Positions 8,331 through 63,495 of a stretch of DNA of 64,000 bases are shown in pieces. The stretch comes from Escherichia phage FL04: sequence record PP358550; one strand, given 5' to 3'. The position numbers and the translations under genes were made by a program. Each line of letters opens with the position of its first letter. Positions within the stretch are counted from its first letter, which is position 1. Under the pieces are notes generated by a model. It saw only the letters and a list, made by a program, of their open reading frames with translations, made no database searches and was not told where the DNA came from.

Positions 8331-10154
8331 ATGTCTGAATTTTTGCTGTTAGATGATCGCGCTCACTGTCTTAAGAGACCTTCAATGTACATCGGGTCAA
8401 CGACTTATGAATCACACAATCGTTTCCTATTTGGAAAATGGACCAAAGTTTCATACGTTCCTGGTCTAGTTAAAATTATTGATGAAATTATCGACAATTC
8501 TGTAGACGAGGCGATCCGCACTAATTTTGAGTACGCTAATGTTATTAGTGTGGATATAAAAGATAACATTGTGTCAGTAACAGATAATGGTCGCGGTATT
8601 CCGCAACATATTGTTACGACGCCAGAAGGGAAACAGATTCCACAACCAGTTGCTGCATGGACACGAGCTAAAGCAGGGTCTAACTTTGATGATACAAATC
8701 GTGTTACTATGGGTATGAATGGGATCGGAAGCGCGCTCACATCATTTTTCTCGTCCTGGTTTACTGGTGTGACGTGTGACGGAGAGAATGAACTGACCGT
8801 TCAATGTACCAATGGTGCAGAAAATATTAGCTGGTCATCTAAGCCGTCAAAACTGAAAGGAACTAAGGTTACGTTCTGCCCCGATTTCGATCATTTTGAA
8901 GGTATGATCATGTCACAAGAAATTTCAGATGTAATTTGTGACCGTATGTATTCCTTAAGTGTAATCTTTCCTAAGATCACGTTTAAGTTTAATGGCAAAA
9001 AGATAACCAGCAAATTCAAGGATTATGCTAAACTATACAATGATGATCCGTTTGTCATTGAAGATAAAAACTTTTCACTTGCCCTAGTTCCTGCGGTTGA
9101 AGGTGAAGGTTTTAAATCAGTATCATTTGCTAATGGTCTGTTTACCAAAAACGGGGGAACACACGTTGATTATGTGACAGATGATCTTTGTGAAGAGATT
9201 GTAAAACGAATCAAGAAAGAATATAAGGTTGATGTTACTAAAGCTGCGGTTAAGTCTGGATTGACCTGTATTCTTATTGTTCGTGAATTGCCAAACCTCC
9301 GTTTTGATTCACAGACAAAAGAACGATTGACTAATCCAACTGGTGATATCAAGCGTCATATTGATCTTGATTTTAAAAAACTGGCTAAAGTCATTGCGAA
9401 GAAAGAAAACATTATCATGCCTATTATTGCTGTAGTCCTGGCACGCAAAGAGGCAGCAGATAAAGCGGCAGCGACTAAGGCAGCAAAGGCAGCGAAACGG
9501 GCTAAGGTGGCAAAACACGTTAAAGCTAACCTTATTGGAACTGACGCAGAAACTACCCTGTTTTTGACGGAAGGTGATTCCGCGATCAACTATCTGATCT
9601 CTGTACGTGATCAAGATTTACATGGCGGTTTCCCGTTGCGAGGCAAAACTCTTACAACGTGGGAACAACCGGAGGCAAAGATCGTTAAGAACGCCGAAAT
9701 TTTTAACATCATGGCGATCACTGGCTTGCAATTTGGTGTTGATGCATTGGAAGTTATGCAATACAAAAATATTGCGATTATGACAGACGCTGATACTGAC
9801 GGGATTGGGTCTATTAAGCCTAGTCTGATCTCTTTCTTTGCACGTTGGCCTGAATTGTTCGAAGATGGACGAATCCGGTTTATCAAAACACCTATTATCA
9901 TTGCGGAACCAAAGAAAGGTGATGATGTTCGATGGTATTATGACCTAGAAGATTTTGAGAACGACCGAGATAATATCAAAGGTTATAGCATTCGATATAT
10001 CAAAGGGTTAGCATCGCTTACAGAATCAGATTATCATCGCGTGATCAACGATCCTGTAATGGAAATCATCACGTTACCGGAAAACTATAAAGAGCTATTC
10101 GATTTGCTCTATAGTGAAGATGCAGATCAGCGCAAAATTTGGATGCAATCATAA
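8331..10154 (+). CDS. 39: DNA topoisomerase II large subunit gp39 (unsplit, GyrB-like ATPase)
   Basis: 607 aa; Bergerat ATPase motifs (IDEIIDNSVDEAIR, DNGRGIP), Toprim region (LTEGDSA, MTDADTDG); length matches a fused gp39+gp60 as in T2-type phages. Confidence 0.93.
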   Translation: MSEFLLLDDRAHCLKRPSMYIGSTTYESHNRFLFGKWTKVSYVPGLVKIIDEIIDNSVDEAIRTNFEYANVISVDIKDNIVSVTDNGRGIPQHIVTTPEGKQIPQPVAAWTRAKAGSNFDDTNRVTMGMNGIGSALTSFFSSWFTGVTCDGENELTVQCTNGAENISWSSKPSKLKGTKVTFCPDFDHFEGMIMSQEISDVICDRMYSLSVIFPKITFKFNGKKITSKFKDYAKLYNDDPFVIEDKNFSLALVPAVEGEGFKSVSFANGLFTKNGGTHVDYVTDDLCEEIVKRIKKEYKVDVTKAAVKSGLTCILIVRELPNLRFDSQTKERLTNPTGDIKRHIDLDFKKLAKVIAKKENIIMPIIAVVLARKEAADKAAATKAAKAAKRAKVAKHVKANLIGTDAETTLFLTEGDSAINYLISVRDQDLHGGFPLRGKTLTTWEQPEAKIVKNAEIFNIMAITGLQFGVDALEVMQYKNIAIMTDADTDGIGSIKPSLISFFARWPELFEDGRIRFIKTPIIIAEPKKGDDVRWYYDLEDFENDRDNIKGYSIRYIKGLASLTESDYHRVINDPVMEIITLPENYKELFDLLYSEDADQRKIWMQS

Positions 10155-58735: not shown

Positions 58736-58910
58736 TAACACCACAACTACACGGTAAAGAGATTTGCGATCTTACTTGGGAAGAGTTGGTCATGTATCGC
58801 GACACCTACAAATGGTTTGAATCCATGAAAGAATTTGTAGCAGCAGTACGAGAAGAAATGAGCATTCGCCAGTATGCGGACGCATATATTGAAAAGGTAA
58901 GCACACTATG
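58731..58910 (+). CDS. hypothetical small protein (59 aa)
   Basis: Overlapping start/stop with neighbours; not in track. Confidence 0.4.
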
Positions 58911-59426
58911 AACCGTTTAACGCCTAAACGCCGTTACTATACCAATACTAAAAACTTTGTCATCTCTGTTTATGAGGCGTGGTTAGAAGATGGCTTTATC
59001 AACATGAACCCAGATTATCAGCGTCCTTTGGTATGGGACACCGAAAACAAACGTATGTTTATCGAAAACCTGATTAATGATTTTCCGGTTGGTGCTATCG
59101 CAATGGCTAAGATTGATGATGGCTCTCGCTATGAGATCGAAATCGTGGACGGTAAACAGCGTTTAAACGCAATATTCTCCTTCATGAAGGATGAGTTTAG
59201 CATTGCTGGTAATGATGATTCTATGTTGTATTACAGTGATTTTACGCCAGCAGAAAAGCGACGTTTCCGAAATCTCGGACTACCCGCGATCATGATGGAA
59301 GAGAGCACACGAGAAGACCGATTAGAGTATTTCTACAAAACAAACTTTTTCGGTGTGCCTCAATCGGAAGAACATCGCCAGCATGTGATTGCCCTATTGC
59401 AAGATGAGCAATTAAAAAATAACTAA
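58908..59426 (+). CDS. stand-alone DUF262 / ParB-like (GmrS N-terminal type) domain protein
   Basis: 172 aa; DYQRPLVW and VDGKQRLNAIF (DGQQR-like) motifs; start overlaps upstream stop. Confidence 0.6.
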   Translation: MNRLTPKRRYYTNTKNFVISVYEAWLEDGFINMNPDYQRPLVWDTENKRMFIENLINDFPVGAIAMAKIDDGSRYEIEIVDGKQRLNAIFSFMKDEFSIAGNDDSMLYYSDFTPAEKRRFRNLGLPAIMMEESTREDRLEYFYKTNFFGVPQSEEHRQHVIALLQDEQLKNN

Positions 59427-59433
59427 AAAGTTG

Positions 59434-59462
59434 TTGACAGGGGATCATCGATCCCCTATAAT
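59434..59462 (+). promoter_or_regulatory. PeSL-type early promoter with palindromic spacer
   Basis: TTGACA-GGGGATCATCGATCCCC-TATAAT. Confidence 0.65.
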
Positions 59463-59496
59463 ACACACATACCGAAACGAACTAGGAGAATCAAAC

Positions 59497-59676
59497 ATGA
59501 AACACTTAACCATCGAATCGGCAATCATCGCAATCGCTAAAGTTCAAGCGGCTTATAATTGCACTGACATTGAAGCCATTTCAAAAATGCAAGCAGAAGC
59601 AGCAAAAGCGGGTGACGAGAAATCTTTAGATGTTCTCTGCGAAATCAAAGCAGAATTGATTTCAAAAATGTTCTAA
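59497..59676 (+). CDS. hypothetical small protein (59 aa)
   Basis: AGGAGAATCAAACATG. Confidence 0.5.
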   Translation: MKHLTIESAIIAIAKVQAAYNCTDIEAISKMQAEAAKAGDEKSLDVLCEIKAELISKMF

Positions 59677-59682
59677 AAGTTG

Positions 59683-59717
59683 TTGACATAACAGAGGGTG
59701 TATATCATAATACACCC
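59683..59717 (+). promoter_or_regulatory. PeSL-type early promoter (hairpin GGGTGTA/TACACCC around -10)
   Basis: TTGACA-17-CATAAT. Confidence 0.65.
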
Positions 59718-59747
59718 ATACCGAAACGAACTACTAAGGAGTATCAA

Positions 59748-59960
59748 ATGGCTAACATCGAAATCATCATTACCGACGTAACTTATGACCGCATTAACGA
59801 AATCGGTACTGCATTACTGGAAGATGGAACAACTCGTACCATCAACTACGCAGAATACGTTGAAATGCGCGGTTGTATTAAACGAGTAGGAAAATATATC
59901 CTGATTGAAAAAGACTATTCAGGATACACCTTAGAGCAATTGCTCGATGGTGCATTATAA
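59748..59960 (+). CDS. hypothetical protein (70 aa)
   Basis: Starts MANIE like ORF 57194; followed by terminator. Confidence 0.6.
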   Translation: MANIEIIITDVTYDRINEIGTALLEDGTTRTINYAEYVEMRGCIKRVGKYILIEKDYSGYTLEQLLDGAL

Positions 59961-59965
59961 TAAAT

Positions 59966-59987
59966 GGGGGCGTTAAGCCCCTTTTTC
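59966..59987 (+). terminator. rho-independent terminator
   Basis: GGGGC-GTTAA-GCCCC hairpin plus TTTTT. Confidence 0.7.
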
Positions 59988-60027
59988 ATAAATATAGGTT
60001 TATAGGTTATCAACTAGAGGATATAAA

Positions 60028-62079
60028 ATGTTTAACTTAGAAATCGACGATCTAATGATTGAATCTTTCGAGAAATGGCTGTTGACGGAAGAGGAAGAAA
60101 ACTTTGGCAGTATTGCTCCGGTACAGTGCTTAAAGCCTAAGCAGAATCCTAAACAGCTTTTTGCAGTACAGACACGCGATAAAGATGTGATTGTCCGTCT
60201 TTGTAACTTCACCAACAAAACACCTAAAATCATTCGTATGGGTGACAAGACCGCACATGTTGTACTGTGCGAAATGAACAAAAGCGGTCGTATTGTACAG
60301 CTTAAAAATGGTCTAGGCGATAACCCGATTGCAGTTATGTCAAGTGCTTTTGATGTGGTTATGGAAACAGCCCGTAAAGCGCAATTAGACGCTGTTATGT
60401 TCCGTTTTAACGTATCCCGCATGAAAGGTAAGACCGAACTGGTTAAGCGCGTTATAGAGCGTTTGGTGCGTCGTACACCGAAGTTTGAAGTATTCCAGCA
60501 GGAAGTAATGACCAGCAAAAAGATCGCTTTAGTTGTTGTCAAGCGTCGCGGGATGGCGATTGATAAGATTAAAGGGATTAAACTTGATGAATCCTTGTTC
60601 ACTAAAGTAGAAAGTGATTTAGGTGATCGCTGGGTATCTAAGGCTACTGGTGAATCTCTGACTAAAGATGAGGCATATGCGGCTAGTCTTGTGTCAGAAG
60701 AAGAACGAAACGCGGAAGCAGAACAACGAGTAGCGGCTAAATCTCGTTTGACTAAAGAAGAAATGCTGAAAACTCAAGCGACCTATAACAGCGACTATGT
60801 GAATCATCCAGAAAAAATTAATCTTAAACCGGAAGAAGATATCACCGAAGCAGAACCTAAGAAACAGTTTAATACTCTGATTGACCGTCAAGCCTTAGAA
60901 CGTTCAACCGCTCGTTCTCTGAATGACTGGACAAGTGATATTATCACTCGCTATGGTTTCATGCGTACTATTTTTGAAAGCGAAGCCGATGCAAAATACG
61001 CAGTAAGCGAACTGGTAAAAGTTCAGGATCAATATGATCCATTGTCTGCGGAAGTTATCGCAGCATCAATCAAACGCTTAAAAGAAATCATGAGCGAGGA
61101 AGTATTCGAAAACAAGATCACCGCCCTGGCAATGGATCGAGTAGACCAGTCTATGCCAGCAGATGTAAAAGCTGAAATGCTGCGTAGTCACATCACCCAG
61201 ATTAAAACCGATGCCCTACGTAATGTTGCTTCCGGTATGTTTGAAGCAATTGCTAGCAACATGGGTGAAATGATGGCAGATATTGATCTTGATCTGCCGG
61301 GCGCGGAAGGTTTTGTGTTGAGCGAATATGCCGATGCAGCATACATCAATATGAACAACTTCCTAACCGACCGTAAGCTGGAAGAGTTTGAAGGCATCGC
61401 AGATCCAGAAGAATTGGTCAAGATGTGCGATGCATTGGATAATGCCTTCTCCAACTATGGCGTTAAACTTGATCCGGGTACTATTCTGTATCGTGGTATG
61501 GACTTCCGGTCGCAAATGTGGGAAACTGCACGTAAGCAAAAAGCGTTTTACTTTAAAAACTATGTGAGCACTTCCCTTGCACCTAACATTTTTGGCGGCT
61601 GGAATGCAAACGTGGCTAGTGCCGTTGCTGGTGTTGATTCTATGGCTGGCTCTCGCGGTGAAGGTGGCGCTAATGTTGCTTTCTCCATTGCTGGCGCGGA
61701 AAACATCCCTGTATTGCCAGTAGGTAACAAAGCATTTGCTTACAAAGAATGCGAGATTTTACTTCCTCGCGGTGTTGTGTTATCCTTTGATACGGTAACT
61801 CGTGCTACGGCATCGACGGATTCACAAGAAACTTATTACATTGAGGCACATATTATGAACAAAAATGAACTGGCAGCATTACAAGAATCTGGCGAGATGA
61901 TCGCGGACGGTGATGCATTCATCCGTGAAGGTGTTATTAAACCTGCTTCTGACCTGTCTTTCTCCAGCTTCATTAGCGAAGCTAAAACCGAACGTAAGAA
62001 AGCAGATAAGGCAACTCTACGTCAGCTTATCGCTGATCTGGTATCTGTAGACGCAATGCCAGATAAATTTAAAATGTAA
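60028..62079 (+). CDS. alt: ADP-ribosyltransferase Alt
   Basis: 683 aa (T4 Alt 682 aa); C-terminal catalytic region with R (LYRGM), STS (YVSTSL) and ExE (KECEILLPRG) motifs. Confidence 0.8.
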   Translation: MFNLEIDDLMIESFEKWLLTEEEENFGSIAPVQCLKPKQNPKQLFAVQTRDKDVIVRLCNFTNKTPKIIRMGDKTAHVVLCEMNKSGRIVQLKNGLGDNPIAVMSSAFDVVMETARKAQLDAVMFRFNVSRMKGKTELVKRVIERLVRRTPKFEVFQQEVMTSKKIALVVVKRRGMAIDKIKGIKLDESLFTKVESDLGDRWVSKATGESLTKDEAYAASLVSEEERNAEAEQRVAAKSRLTKEEMLKTQATYNSDYVNHPEKINLKPEEDITEAEPKKQFNTLIDRQALERSTARSLNDWTSDIITRYGFMRTIFESEADAKYAVSELVKVQDQYDPLSAEVIAASIKRLKEIMSEEVFENKITALAMDRVDQSMPADVKAEMLRSHITQIKTDALRNVASGMFEAIASNMGEMMADIDLDLPGAEGFVLSEYADAAYINMNNFLTDRKLEEFEGIADPEELVKMCDALDNAFSNYGVKLDPGTILYRGMDFRSQMWETARKQKAFYFKNYVSTSLAPNIFGGWNANVASAVAGVDSMAGSRGEGGANVAFSIAGAENIPVLPVGNKAFAYKECEILLPRGVVLSFDTVTRATASTDSQETYYIEAHIMNKNELAALQESGEMIADGDAFIREGVIKPASDLSFSSFISEAKTERKKADKATLRQLIADLVSVDAMPDKFKM

Positions 62080-62096: not shown

Positions 62097-62125
62097 TTGA
62101 CTCAAACGGGGACTAGTTTTATACT
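62097..62125 (+). promoter_or_regulatory. early promoter overlapping a hairpin/terminator after alt
   Basis: TTGACT-17-TATACT; imperfect inverted repeat CGGGGACTAGT/ACTAGCCCCG followed by TTTTCTG. Confidence 0.55.
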
Positions 62126-62157
62126 AGCCCCGTTTTCTGTTATATGGGAGGTTTAAA

Positions 62158-62982
62158 ATGTTCAAGAAATTACAGGATTTTCGTCTTTCAGAAGAATCAC
62201 GCGAATCAATGATGGAACGTATGGATAATTACATCGAAACATATGACATTGAGGGGATTAATGGTTACATGATCACTGAGATGATCAGCGATCAGATTAA
62301 CTTTGATGATTATGTGAAGGTTATCCGCTTCCTTGAGCGCGAGACACAAGATTATGGATTTGTCAAGAAAATCATTAATGTGATGTATGAAGTACACTCC
62401 GAAGACTTTGGAGATAATGTATTCAAACATTACAAACATAACAACATAACCCCAGCAGAATATAATGCAATCTGTGATTATGTGTCTGAACAATACGAAT
62501 GGGTAAATGGTGCTCTCTTAGGGGAAGAAGACATGACCGATGAGATATCAGAGATTGTTGATTTGATGGATTGTGTCATGGATAAAACCGAAAAGTTAAA
62601 CGGTACTCTTTATCGAGGTCAACATCTTGACATTCAGACAATAGAGCGTATCATTGAAGATAAGGAGTTTACCTTTAAAAACTTTGTATCTACCAGCATG
62701 ACACCGATCATCTTTGGAGGATGGCTATCAAACAGCACTAGCCTTTATTGTGAGAATCGATATGAATCAATGACCGGAAAGATGCAACATTCTTGTAATG
62801 TATCATGGGTAATTGACGTAAAAGATCATAAAGGTTTTGTTGTTGGGTCAATTGCATGGAACCCTTGCGAATGTGAAGTAATTTTACCGCGAGGGACTTG
62901 CGTCAAGGTAAACGACGTAGTAGAATCTTTCGGCGATGAGAATCGTAGACAATTTACAATTTTCGGTGAGGTGACTAAATGA
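62158..62982 (+). CDS. Alt-like ADP-ribosyltransferase paralog (274 aa)
   Basis: LYRGQ, FVSTSMTPIIFGGW, CECEVILPRGT mirror the Alt catalytic motifs. Confidence 0.65.
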   Translation: MFKKLQDFRLSEESRESMMERMDNYIETYDIEGINGYMITEMISDQINFDDYVKVIRFLERETQDYGFVKKIINVMYEVHSEDFGDNVFKHYKHNNITPAEYNAICDYVSEQYEWVNGALLGEEDMTDEISEIVDLMDCVMDKTEKLNGTLYRGQHLDIQTIERIIEDKEFTFKNFVSTSMTPIIFGGWLSNSTSLYCENRYESMTGKMQHSCNVSWVIDVKDHKGFVVGSIAWNPCECEVILPRGTCVKVNDVVESFGDENRRQFTIFGEVTK

Positions 62983-63464
62983 AAATGATTAAACTGATTG
63001 GTCTTGCGGCTGCATTCATGCTTACTGGTTGTGCCAACATGGAAGCTATGATGAATGCTAAATCAGATCCGGTTTTCTTGCTTCGTGAATGTAAAGCAGC
63101 ATATGCAAGTGATGATCAGATCGAATCATGCTTTATTTCTAAAATGGAACGTCGAGACGTGGATCGCGTTAAAGTTGGTTTAGCACCACAAACGCAGATG
63201 TTCAAGGATGCAATCAAAGAAGCGCGGGAAGAGAAAGCACAAGAAGAAAAGAAGCGTCAAGAAGAATTGCGCAAGCAGAAAGAAGAGTCTATACAACTTG
63301 AGAAGATGAAAGCGCGGGATCGCTGTATTATCATGTCTGACATGCAGATAGAGCAAGAAGCAAGAAAGGCAGCATTAAACGGTGATTATGACCGTTATGA
63401 AGAACTTAACAGCGCAGAATTTCAAACTAAGGCACTAAAATATTGCAATGATTTAGCAAAATAA
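62979..63464 (+). CDS. putative lipoprotein with coiled-coil region
   Basis: 161 aa; signal peptide with lipobox LTGC; K/E-rich central region. Confidence 0.6.
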   Translation: MKMIKLIGLAAAFMLTGCANMEAMMNAKSDPVFLLRECKAAYASDDQIESCFISKMERRDVDRVKVGLAPQTQMFKDAIKEAREEKAQEEKKRQEELRKQKEESIQLEKMKARDRCIIMSDMQIEQEARKAALNGDYDRYEELNSAEFQTKALKYCNDLAK

Positions 63465-63467
63465 AAA

Positions 63468-63486
63468 GGCGGGGATAATCCCCGCC
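63468..63486. terminator. bidirectional terminator between convergent genes
   Basis: GGCGGGGA-TAA-TCCCCGCC hairpin flanked by AAAAA and TTTCGTTT. Confidence 0.65.
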
Positions 63487-63495
63487 TTTCGTTTA

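Follow-up and report, generated by a model that had tools for sequence, protein, structure and literature searches.

The window analyzed here is a 64,000-nt stretch of Escherichia phage FL04 (sequence record PP358550), and the genome around the locus is that of a Krischvirus, an RB49-like T4 relative. Between a full-length alt gene and the convergent gene 54 lie two further genes, namely, one for a short Alt-like ADP-ribosyltransferase (ART), hereafter the short ART, and one for a lipoprotein, together with a series of transcription and translation signals (Table 1).

Table 1. Features of the alt-gene 54 interval, given as positions in the window
Feature	Position	Strand	Basis or remark
Intrinsic terminator hairpin, predicted to insulate alt from upstream early transcription	59966..59982	+	Terminator scan
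Late-promoter-like box CATAAATA (7/8 of TATAAATA)	59987..59994	+	33 nt before alt start codon
alt, full-length 683-aa Alt-like ART, presumed virion-packaged	60028..62079	+	PHROG 802, E 1.9e-179, full length; PF03496
Early sigma-70-type promoter, -35 TTGACT, 17-nt spacer, -10 TATACT	62097..62125	+	Consensus scan, 10/12
G4-loop-C4 stem-loop over -10 box, then TTTTCT	62104..62135	+	Terminator/attenuator half of PeSL
Shine-Dalgarno GGGAGG, 6 nt 5' of ATG	62146..62151	+	Sequence; GG core invariant in six lineages
Short Alt-like ADP-ribosyltransferase ORF, 274 aa	62158..62982	+	ATG start; = RB49p183 / RB49ORF183c
All-helical N-terminal half, residues 1-145, fast-diverging, recombining	62158..62592	+	DSSP of model; identity, dS
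LYRGQ, residues 151-155, with catalytic Arg153 (NAD-binding region 1)	62608..62622	+	Alignment
S178-T179-S180 motif (region 2)	62689..62697	+	Alignment
E238-C-E240, ExE of ARTT loop (region 3, catalytic Glu)	62869..62877	+	Alignment
161-aa lipoprotein gene	62979..63464	+	Start overlaps short ART stop (ATGA); ORF list
Bidirectional terminator, short ART/lipoprotein operon versus convergent gene 54	63464..63490	.	12-bp stem, terminator scan

The short ART is 100% identical to RB49p183 (RB49ORF183c), and its start codon lies 78 nt after the alt stop codon. The Pfam profile PF03496 (ADPrib_exo_Tox) matched residues 82-266 with an E value of 4.3e-16 and 59.3 bits (gathering cut-off, 23.4 bits), covering profile positions 2-187 of 196, and PHROG 15144 ('ADP-ribosyltransferase') covered the product end to end (E 2.6e-198). 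Residues 8-268 also aligned to positions 330-602 of 674 in PHROG 802 ('Alt-like'; E 3e-45). In BLASTP, residues 151-257 shared 37% identity with residues 487-593 of the neighboring Alt (E 1e-16), and the protein shared 31% identity with residues 413-593 of T4 Alt (E 1e-23). PHROG 802, BLASTP, and the alignments thus match the short ART to the catalytic module in the C-terminal part of Alt; the first ~330 and the last ~70-80 residues of the longer protein are missing. The alignments showed no counterpart of the Alt N-terminal propeptide L-x-E-(V/L/S)-F-(D/E) or of the Alt C-terminal tail (conserved YDGD...KF). The N-terminal Tevenvirinae_ADPRT domain PF26846 is absent as well; all clusters of the short family carry PF03496 alone, and precomputed Pfam assignments place both domains in nearly all full-length Alts. 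The first-pass annotation had proposed a second Alt-family ART directly 3' of alt that lacks the long N-terminal region of Alt, and both points were borne out, the former by PF03496, PHROG 802, and BLASTP and the latter by the PHROG 802 alignment starting at position 330 and the missing PF26846.

The gene itself is not new. It is a known alt paralogue, on record since 2003-2006: it is annotated as RB49p183/ORF183c, with a RefSeq description that likens it to the C-terminal portion of T4 Alt, and RB49ORF183c was published as a paralogous duplication of alt (Nolan et al. 2006). With both the gene and its relationship to alt already recorded, the discovery is a modest one. What is new here is the absence of the Alt termini and of PF26846, the PeSL cassette, the conserved synteny and selection, and the recombination mosaic.

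The product carries a complete R-S-ExE signature, formed by R153, S178-T-S, and E238-x-E240. All three Alt catalytic motifs previously read from the 274-aa product were found, namely, LYRGQ, FVSTSMTPIIFGGW (residues 176-189), and CECEVILPRG (residues 237-246). R153, S178, E238, and E240 were invariant in 41 aligned homologs, seven short-family clusters reaching down to ~45% identity included, and both glutamates, on whose conservation the earlier proposal had been made to depend, are thus kept throughout. T179 was likewise invariant in the homolog alignments, and S180 was at least 90% conserved. When known enzymes were aligned, R153 proved invariant across Alt, T2 Alt.-2, ModA, ModB, and RB49 ModB, and the S178, E238, and E240 columns were invariant with T4 Alt, T2 Alt.-2, ModA, and ModB. 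An AlphaFold (AF2) model (pLDDT 89.4, pTM 0.87) predicts an ART fold composed of a helical N-terminal part and a split beta-sandwich core. Foldseek searches with this model returned Vis, C3bot2, CDTa, Certhrax, and iota Ia as best matches (E 3e-11 to 1e-9; TM ~0.6, normalised to targets), with a probability of 1.00 for Vis, C3bot2, CDTa, and Ia. A close solved structure was also sought by sequence, which yielded marginal matches alone (a Tre1-like PAAR protein, E 0.07; SpvB; Vis), and the short ART is therefore without a close solved relative.

Short ARTs form a family of seven 90%-identity clusters, 271-288 aa in length and 45-99% identical, with the catalytic residues present in all of them and the order alt, short ART, lipoprotein gene, and convergent gene 54 kept across the seven. 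The protein is 100% identical in 32 cultured Krischvirus genomes among the matches listed and the ~58 cultured Krischvirus genomes carrying the region all show at least 97.8% identity. The gene is under purifying selection, with a dN/dS of 0.11 overall, 0.10 in the N-terminal half, and 0.04 in the core. Two candidates for further short forms were discarded, since P0007 (415 aa) is an N-truncated T2-type alt.-2 and P0008 the second part of a full-length alt that is split in two (356 + 316 aa). The short family constitutes a separate clade, at a distance of ~0.71-0.74 to all full-length Alts. A recent duplication of the neighboring alt was rejected because the family is about equidistant from all Alts and because T4 Alt, not the neighbor, is the best BLASTP match.

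The neighboring alt is 99% identical to RB49 alt, and its product shares 27% identity with T4 Alt over 695 aligned positions (E 1e-61). The terminator 5' of alt (dG -12.2 kcal/mol, z -2.4 by RNA folding) corresponds to the TransTerm prediction 'alt<--RB49ORF185c' in the supplement of Nolan et al. At L010, a locus at 45% identity, the G and C arms of this hairpin are swapped with pairing kept, and the late-promoter-like box reads AATAAATA at the same position; an xATAAATA box and a terminator thus lie 5' of alt in both the window and L010. T4 alt displays the same layout, with TATAAATA directly after the upstream hairpin. Because CATAAATA is not among the 17 RB49 late promoters of Nolan et al., the alt box is a predicted rather than a proven promoter.

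The short ART is preceded by signals of a different class. Its early promoter (GTTGACT-17-TATACT) follows an A-rich tract, carries a promoter annotation in the GEC-3S record, and was predicted by Nolan et al. as Pe:112388. It is among the weakest early-consensus matches, scoring 9.3 versus 19-47 in the Nolan prediction and 7.4 versus 30-62 bits with a PWM trained on 34 further early promoters of RB49. With the same PWM, it outscores every non-promoter position of the RB49 genome, and the 36 of 327,936 positions scoring as high are all on the early strand. The -35 box, spacer length, and -10 box are invariant in six lineages. The stem-loop over the -10 box is highly stable (dG -20.6 kcal/mol, z -5.0; 0/200 shuffles as stable), and 98.3% of its cells are paired across the six lineages, two pairs showing compensatory changes; pairing falls to 35-48% once the register is slid. 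Hairpin and T-run are kept across these lineages, with protein identity among them down to 45%.

This arrangement shows the layout of a PeSL (promoter-early stem-loop) as defined previously (PMC2839356 and PMC4122927; Arbiol et al. 2010; Comeau et al. 2014), with an intergenic -35/N17/-10 promoter, an A-rich tract, and a GN-loop-CN stem-loop over the -10 box. Early promoter and terminator activity has been shown experimentally for PeSL cassettes of RB49 and phi1, namely, 193/192, 206/205, and 211/210 (PMC2839356), and by analogy the stem-loop at the short ART probably ends the alt transcript. Compared with those cassettes, the short ART element is a weaker consensus match (TTGACT/TATACT, AGCCCCGT instead of ACACCCAT) and is found not within a hyperplastic region but at the border of the conserved alt-gene 54 block. 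No late-promoter box like TATAAATA was found between alt and the short ART, and TATAAATA itself does not occur anywhere close to the ORF in the window. The top-scoring RB49 'late promoter' of Nolan et al. (Pl:112065, score 15.9) falls inside the short ART ORF and was rejected, its sequence being TACAAACA and not TATAAATA.

Downstream, an ORF of 159-174 aa is found 3' of the short ART in every locus long enough. The lipoprotein encoded in the window matches PHROG 16112, a PHROG without assigned function, and its lipobox L-x-G-C and four further cysteines are kept in five lineages. It is only 31-47% identical where gp54 is 76-93% identical and is hypervariable between otherwise near-identical phages. 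The terminator closing the operon (dG -19.6 kcal/mol, z -4.5 by RNA folding) is also annotated in the GEC-3S record, and Nolan et al. predicted it as '54-><-RB49ORF182c'.

Together with the lipoprotein gene, the N-terminal half of the short ART forms a sharply delimited recombination mosaic, its flanks being 93-98% identical. Relative to family member P0002, the N-terminal half is 72% identical and the core 96%, and relative to P0003 the values are 43-54% and 82%, respectively. At the DNA level, identity falls to 65-77% between 62180 and 62600, and dS is 1.9 in the N-terminal half versus 0.66 for comparison. Positive selection was considered for this half and found no support in its low dN/dS; with the high dS, this makes the divergence look like an exchange of old alleles. 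Residues ~97-145 correspond to helices common to Alt and C3-like ARTs. The helical N-terminal half probably sets target choice and is a candidate specificity domain.

Taken together, we consider it reasonably likely that the short ART is an early-made, probably unpackaged, arginine-type mono-ART and a functional analogue of ModA and ModB. That it is an active enzyme, specific for arginine, expressed early, and not carried in virions is inferred, as are its targets; the arginine specificity is taken entirely from the ExE motif and family membership. The protein would be an old paralogue of the capsid-borne Alt, cut down to the catalytic module, to which a helical N-terminal region peculiar to the family is joined. 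Its gene and the lipoprotein gene would be co-transcribed from the PeSL right after infection by the unmodified host sigma-70 RNA polymerase, and the PeSL stem-loop would also terminate the late alt transcript. Given early PeSL signals separate from the late alt signals, the locus would encode two temporally separated enzymes, a late one, Alt, which is packaged and then injected, and an early one, the short ART, which is synthesized in the cytoplasm. There, with NAD+, it would ADP-ribosylate arginines of host (or phage) proteins during host takeover and so play the role of T4 ModA/ModB.

The suggestion of an unpackaged, intracellular enzyme had already been made in the first-pass annotation; it is now independently backed by the regulatory DNA, a conserved early cassette without a late promoter, unlike that of alt, and absence from virions is a prediction from sequence. 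The accompanying premise that the long N-terminal region of Alt is the packaging determinant found no support in the literature read, where only ~7 N-terminal residues of T4 Alt are removed, with its C-terminus also processed by gp21 (PMC9026906). The short ART is nonetheless likely unpackaged because it has no PF26846 and neither of the gp21-processed Alt termini. Targeting in T4 is known only for a 10-aa sequence of internal proteins (PMC9026906). The short ART N-terminus (MFKKLQDFRLSE) was compared with every ATG-initiated RB49 ORF, and the best non-self score was 26 versus 60 for self; no annotated internal proteins were found in RB49. The literature searched yielded no experiment on the short ART protein and no Krischvirus virion proteome, transcriptome, or functional ART study. 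A protein made early could, however, still enter proheads at a later stage.

It is quite improbable, in our estimation, that virions carry the short ART too, its N-terminus (MFKKLQDFRLSE/E, the slash marking the cut) being a capsid-targeting propeptide removed by a gp21-type prohead protease, making two injected ARTs. L-S-E at residues 10-12 does fit the (L/I)-x-E rule of the T4-type prohead protease, and such a motif occurs within the first 13 residues in 5/7 short-family members versus 9% of RB49 ORFs; these five sequences are related and are therefore not independent observations, and the motif is missing in P0006 and P0021. A 10-residue N-terminal sequence suffices for T4 head targeting (PMC9026906), but the short ART N-terminus resembles no other RB49 protein and shows no homology to the propeptide at the start of Alt. 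Delivery in the phage head is frequent among phage ARTs (PMC9503650), and the gene adjoins alt and tail/baseplate genes; however, the promoter 5' of it is of the early class, with no late promoter there, and a strong conserved hairpin and T-run part it from the late alt transcript. Far less credible still is a decaying, functionless remnant of a tandem alt duplication, as annotated for the broken T4 copies alt.-1 and alt.-2. Nolan et al. name RB49ORF183c in one sentence with these two, and truncated or split Alt paralogues do exist elsewhere (P0007 and P0008), but the T4 remnants copy the N-terminal and not the catalytic part of alt. Moreover, the short ART ORF is intact at 271-288 aa across 45-99% identity, its catalytic residues are invariant with a dN/dS of 0.04-0.11, a conserved promoter and Shine-Dalgarno sequence of its own precede it, and its predicted fold is complete and confident. 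The conservation data effectively refute the remnant reading.

A third alternative, which we regard as unlikely, keeps early activity and directs it mainly, instead of at the takeover of RNA polymerase or translation, against host defence or toxin proteins, or at a non-protein or RNA-linked substrate like that of ModB, the allelic N-terminal domains tracking host targets. T4 Alt counters MazF in this way, and AcrIF11 counters Cascade. Accessory or conflict genes between PeSLs typically show the kind of mosaic seen for the N-terminal half and lipoprotein gene (PMC2839356), viral ARTs have been described as fast-evolving conflict genes (PMC9503650), and precedents exist in the RNAylation by ModB and in the ART AcrIF11. 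On the other hand, dN/dS is 0.10 in the variable half too, with no signal of positive selection, and the protein is nearly invariant among the ~58 cultured Krischvirus genomes. An early-made, probably unpackaged ART analogous to the Mod proteins remains the reading that we prefer.

Alt, ModA, and ModB of T4 are a textbook case of viral host reprogramming by ADP-ribosylation, and RB49-type phages, many of them isolated with phage therapy in view, differ from T4 in their set, which consists of Alt, one Mod, and the short Alt paralogue. Should the short ART indeed be early and unpackaged, alt and the short ART would represent a natural experiment in which one catalytic module is used at two times, possibly on different targets, and the allelic N-terminal domains would give a handle on ART target specificity. 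ModB has recently been shown to attach RNA to proteins. More tentatively, and as a reading that we hold rather unlikely, the alt-gene 54 junction may be an exchangeable, PeSL-driven two-gene early cassette, in which the ART N-terminal half is a swappable targeting domain. Were this the case, alleles of that half, passed by recombination between otherwise near-identical phages, would point ADP-ribosylation at different proteins of the host, perhaps those of defence or toxin systems, the hypervariable lipoprotein would have an envelope function, e.g., superinfection exclusion, and the short ART would take the T4 role of ModA in RB49-type phages.

T4 Alt (gpAlt) is an NAD+--arginine ADP-ribosyltransferase and a virion internal protein. 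Like the neighboring Krischvirus Alt, it has the same R-S-ExE module and the same preceding helices (TPAE..Y..N..LLG) as the short ART, and its gene lies at the same place, with the early gene block on one side and gene 54 on the other. However, T4 Alt is ~680 aa long compared with 274 aa, and its gene has a terminator and a late promoter where the short ART has its own early PeSL promoter. In T2 and RB51, alt.-2 is likewise a second alt-derived gene between alt and gene 54 but, unlike the short ART, it is full length (685 aa) and retains both the MELITELFD start and the tail at the C-terminus. It starts 3 nt after alt without promoter or terminator of its own and is therefore presumably co-expressed late. 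T4 alt.-1 and alt.-2 are broken N-terminal copies, and the Krischvirus short ART is the opposite, a catalytic part with independent early signals.

T4 ModA and ModB (~200 aa, early, non-virion) resemble the short ART in being small, single-module R-S-ExE proteins with predicted early sigma-70 expression. In BLASTP, the short ART matched ModA with an E value of 0.41, ModB with 1.2, and RB49 ModB with 0.07, and there was no Mod PHROG among its PHROG matches; without significant similarity, the analogy to ModA/ModB is therefore functional only and not a family relationship. The Mod genes also lie at another locus, and the short ART has an extra helical N-terminal extension of ~95 residues. The ART set of RB49 comprises alt, the short ART, and one ModB-like gene, with no ModA, such that the short ART would make the third ART of RB49, next to the three of T4 (Alt, ModA, and ModB). 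Finally, the C3-like, Vis, iota/CDTa, and Certhrax toxins (PF03496) share with the short ART the same predicted fold, R, STS, and ExE at 15-21% identity, but the short ART, unlike these toxins, is phage-encoded and presumably intracellular and comes without a secretion or translocation component.

The gene immediately downstream of alt encodes a 274-aa protein (hereafter short ART), which the first-pass annotation had recognized as a second Alt-like ADP-ribosyltransferase; its ORF boundaries were recovered exactly, as were the motifs LYRGQ (residues 151–155), FVSTSMTPIIFGGW (176–189), and CECEVILPRG (237–246). The match to the ART superfamily far exceeds chance. Pfam PF03496 was hit with an E value of 4.3e-16 (59.3 bits, cut-off 23.4), PHROG 15144 ("ADP-ribosyltransferase") covers the protein from end to end (E 2.6e-198), PHROG 802 ("Alt-like") aligns residues 8–268 with profile positions 330–602 of 674 (E 3e-45), and BLASTP against the neighboring Alt gives 37% identity over residues 151–257 (E 1e-16). 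The region shares 98.6–99.4% DNA identity with the RB49-like coliphages kaaroe, GoldenSnicker, Phi1, JSE, GEC-3S, and RB49 (genus Krischvirus), and short ART itself matches the RB49 product at every residue (100%), with identity of at least 97.8% across the ~58 cultured genomes carrying the region. Beyond the Krischvirus short ARTs, identity drops at once to about 30%, and the next matches are all full-length Alts. The gene and its kinship to alt are thus correctly described but already on record: RefSeq lists RB49p183 as an "ADP-ribosyltransferase" that is "similar to C-terminal part of T4 Alt protein," and Nolan et al. (2006) named RB49ORF183c, 44RRORF188c, and T4 alt.-1/alt.-2 as paralogous duplications of alt (PMC1524935). 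The enzyme family is well known, and short ART is an unexceptional member of it.

Upon alignment with the Alt of the window, T4 Alt, T2 Alt.-2, T4 ModA, T4 ModB, and RB49 ModB, the columns holding R153, S178, E238, and E240 show no variation, and the R-S-ExE triad of short ART is therefore intact. All four residues are also invariant across 41 aligned short and full-length relatives, so the refuting case named at first pass, a lack of conservation of the catalytic glutamates in homologs, does not arise. An AlphaFold2 model built from the 41-sequence alignment was confident (pLDDT 89.4, pTM 0.87), with residues 1–145 helical and residues 146–274 forming a beta-rich core. Foldseek comparison of this model with the PDB retrieved the R-S-E toxins Vis, C3bot2, CDTa, Certhrax, and iota Ia (E 3e-11 to 1e-9), while a sequence search for solved structures found none close. 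In the R-S-E family, an ExE motif, as opposed to the QxE of C3, accompanies arginine as the acceptor, and by analogy short ART would modify arginine.

The most informative new evidence on short ART comes from regulatory DNA. T4 alt resembles alt of the window in its layout, with an upstream hairpin and a perfect TATAAATA, and in a metagenomic relative (Alt 48% identical) the hairpin arms are swapped and followed by AATAAATA. No TATAAATA-like box was seen ahead of the short ART ORF. The gap between the two genes reads AAGAAATAATGG-TTGACT-N17-TATACT, with a G4-loop-C4 hairpin across the -10 box (dG -20.6 kcal/mol, z -5.0; 0 of 200 shuffles equally stable) and then TTTTCT. This architecture matches the promoter-early stem-loop (PeSL) cassettes of RB49/phi1, which are sigma-70 early promoters as well as effective terminators (Arbiol et al. 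2010; PMC2839356, PMC4122927), and precisely this site is among the early promoters predicted by Nolan et al. (Pe:112388), but its score is low, at 9.3 versus 19–47 for most others. When 34 strong RB49 early promoters, with the short ART site excluded, were used to train a position weight matrix, that site scored 7.4 bits, a value equaled or exceeded at only 36 of 327,936 RB49 genome positions. These comprise the 34 training promoters, the short ART site, and another predicted promoter; the early-transcription strand carries all of them and the opposite strand none. Since only promoters score as high, the predicted short ART promoter is a weak yet genuine member of the RB49 early class. Furthermore, the -35 box, 17-nt spacer, -10 box, G/C stem, and T-run are invariant in six lineages whose ART proteins are as little as 45% identical; inner stem positions covary among them (C:G, U:A, A:U), and 98.3% of stem cells are paired overall versus 35–48% with the register slid. 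In the simplest reading, alt would be late and packaged, and short ART would form an early operon with the lipoprotein gene that follows it.

Features of the alt–short ART region, with DNA identities between the window and L017, the metagenomic locus of short-form cluster P0002
Feature	Position	Strand	Remarks
172-aa ORF	58908-59426	+	
Early promoter	59434-59462		Perfect or near-perfect
Early promoter	59683-59711		Perfect or near-perfect
Terminator hairpin upstream of alt	59966-59982	+	Followed directly by CATAAATA
Late-promoter-like CATAAATA	59987-59994	+	33 nt ahead of alt ATG
alt	60028..62079	+	683 aa
Short ART ORF	62158..62982	+	ATG start; 274 aa; 78 nt past alt stop
Lipoprotein ORF	62979-63464	+	161 aa; ATG overlaps ART stop codon (ATGA)
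Bidirectional terminator	63464-63490		Would close the putative short ART/lipoprotein operon
alt and PeSL	up to ~62180		~93% identity
N-terminal half of ART	62180-62600		65-77% identity
Catalytic half of ART	62600-63000		87-93% identity
Lipoprotein gene	63020-63440		~40% identity
Gene 54	from ~63500		~92% identity

RB49 early promoters are highly stereotyped, reading AAAAAGTTGTTGACA, N17 often with a G/C hairpin over the -10 box, and then ACACCCAT; a simple early-promoter matrix run over the entire RB49 genome gave no match on the non-early strand. Two such promoters lie shortly upstream of alt (window 59431–59760). The 172-aa ORF in the same region contains NPDYQRPLVWD and IVDGKQRL, a putative DUF262/ParB-like signature (GmrSD N-terminal type), and such a domain standing alone among phage early genes might bear on type IV restriction. 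The top-scoring RB49 "late promoter" of Nolan et al. (Pl:112065, score 15.9) maps inside the short ART ORF (window 62406–62448; RB49 112023–112065, minus strand). It is not credible, its core reading TACAAACA and not TATAAATA, and seems to be either a false positive or an error in the table.

A search of 5.8 billion proteins, clustered at 90% identity, returned seven clusters of the short form (P0001–P0006 and P0021; 271–288 aa, 45–99% identical), the remaining matches being full-length Alt. A long alt-like ORF precedes every short homologue, a 159- to 174-aa ORF lies 3′ of short ART in every locus reaching far enough, and convergent gene 54 follows wherever the contig reaches. A neighbor-joining tree built on the catalytic region unites the short forms in one clade that lies ~0.71–0.74 from all Alts, including the neighbor. 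This near-equal distance points to an old paralogue and speaks against a recent local copy of alt. Between the window and P0002, dN/dS was 0.11 overall, 0.10 in the N-terminal half, and 0.04 in the core. Other reduced forms of Alt were also found: P0007 (415 aa, 14 contigs) is a T2-type alt.-2 without its first ~270 residues, and in L018 (2366–4386), the locus of P0008, a full-length alt is divided between two overlapping ORFs of 356 and 316 aa. The N-terminal part of Alt seems to have been lost or detached repeatedly, although assembly or gene calling may have produced some of these cases as artefacts.

Divergence from the window is distributed unevenly along the metagenomic loci of P0002 and P0003 (L015). 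Identity to the window, for P0002 and P0003 respectively, is 98% and 96% for Alt, 93% and 89% for gp54, 83% and 63% for short ART, and 34% and 47% for the lipoprotein; within short ART, the helical N-terminal half is 72% and 43–54% identical and the core 96% and 82%. The break points against L017 (62180–63440) are sharp and fall at the PeSL cassette and the bidirectional terminator. Given a dS of 1.9 in the N-terminal half versus 0.66 in the core, with low dN/dS in both, the mosaic looks like recombinational exchange of old alleles, and it agrees with the shuffling of modules that has been ascribed to PeSLs (PMC2839356). By this mosaic, the helical half is likely the specificity-determining part of short ART and the lipoprotein gene is a fast-swapping accessory gene. 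The latter always accompanies short ART, its product being 31–47% identical where gp54 is 76–93%. A lipobox (L-x-G-C) and four further cysteines are kept in five lineages, and the middle of the protein is charged and coiled-coil-like. The lipoprotein belongs to PHROG 16112, a group without assigned function; its sole other match, weak and confined to the signal-peptide region, was to a Cor superinfection-exclusion family (E 0.007). The protein could act early, either at the envelope or in superinfection exclusion.

Short ART consists of the Alt catalytic module plus the helices immediately preceding it. As the first-pass annotation had observed, the long N-terminal region of Alt is missing: these first ~330 residues correspond to PF26846 ("Tevenvirinae_ADPRT"), present in nearly all full-length Alts and in none of the short forms. 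Alignments indicate that the conserved C-terminal tail of Alt (~70–80 residues) is absent as well. The accompanying assumption that the long N-terminal region directs packaging finds no support in Kuhn and Thomas (2022), who describe Alt as a core protein, present at about 40 copies in each head, that loses only about 7 N-terminal residues and is also processed by gp21 at its C-terminus, making both termini propeptides; internal proteins alone have a defined targeting signal that is known, their 10-residue N-terminal sequence (PMC9026906). Even with that premise not established, the conclusion that short ART is unpackaged may hold, because it lacks both Alt termini. Krischvirus Alt itself ends in ...MPDKFKM, nearer to T2 Alt.-2 (...MSKKFKM) than to T4 Alt (...MPYKFVQG), and its propeptide region LMIE/SFE (residues 9–15) is shifted by six residues relative to LITE/LFD of T4 (3–9).

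On balance, we lean toward short ART being an active enzyme that would be produced in the cytoplasm early on, from its own PeSL promoter, would not be packaged, and would act during host takeover as an arginine-type mono-ART, making it a functional analogue of ModA/ModB and not a relative. No Krischvirus virion proteome, transcriptome, or biochemical study was found in the literature searched. Overlapping with this reading is the rather unlikely variant that the early enzyme is aimed at defence or toxin proteins or unusual substrates. That short ART is also packaged, via an N-terminal propeptide, is more doubtful still: (L/I)-x-E occurs within the first 13 residues of five of the seven short-family members versus 9% of RB49 ORFs, but these five are mutually related, the other two lack the motif, and the N-terminus of short ART, MFKKLQDFRLSE, resembles that of no other RB49 protein. 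A dead remnant of an alt duplication is highly improbable, since the stable synteny, the separate old clade, and a dN/dS of 0.04–0.11 exclude a decaying pseudogene. With its conserved early cassette, its allelic N-terminal domain, and the apparent division of two Alt paralogues into a late and an early one, short ART is a reasonable, though unsurprising, subject for follow-up.

It is common to find a second gene derived from alt at this position. In T2 and RB51 it is a full-length alt.-2 of 685 aa, whereas T4 has two broken ORFs, which its annotation ascribes to an old duplication of the beginning of alt. In T2 (L002 2743–2750) and RB51 (L003), alt.-2 begins 3 nt past the alt stop without a promoter or terminator and retains the same N-terminus as Alt, MELITELFD, so these phages may package two different Alt enzymes. 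RB49 carries three ART genes, namely, alt, short ART, and a ModB-like gene beside srd, and no ModA homologue was found in its genome. RB49 modB (8917–9420) is nearer to T4 ModB (E 8e-11) than to ModA (E 2e-6). The ART set of RB49 therefore comprises Alt, a short Alt paralogue, and a ModB-like enzyme, in contrast to the Alt, ModA, and ModB of T4.
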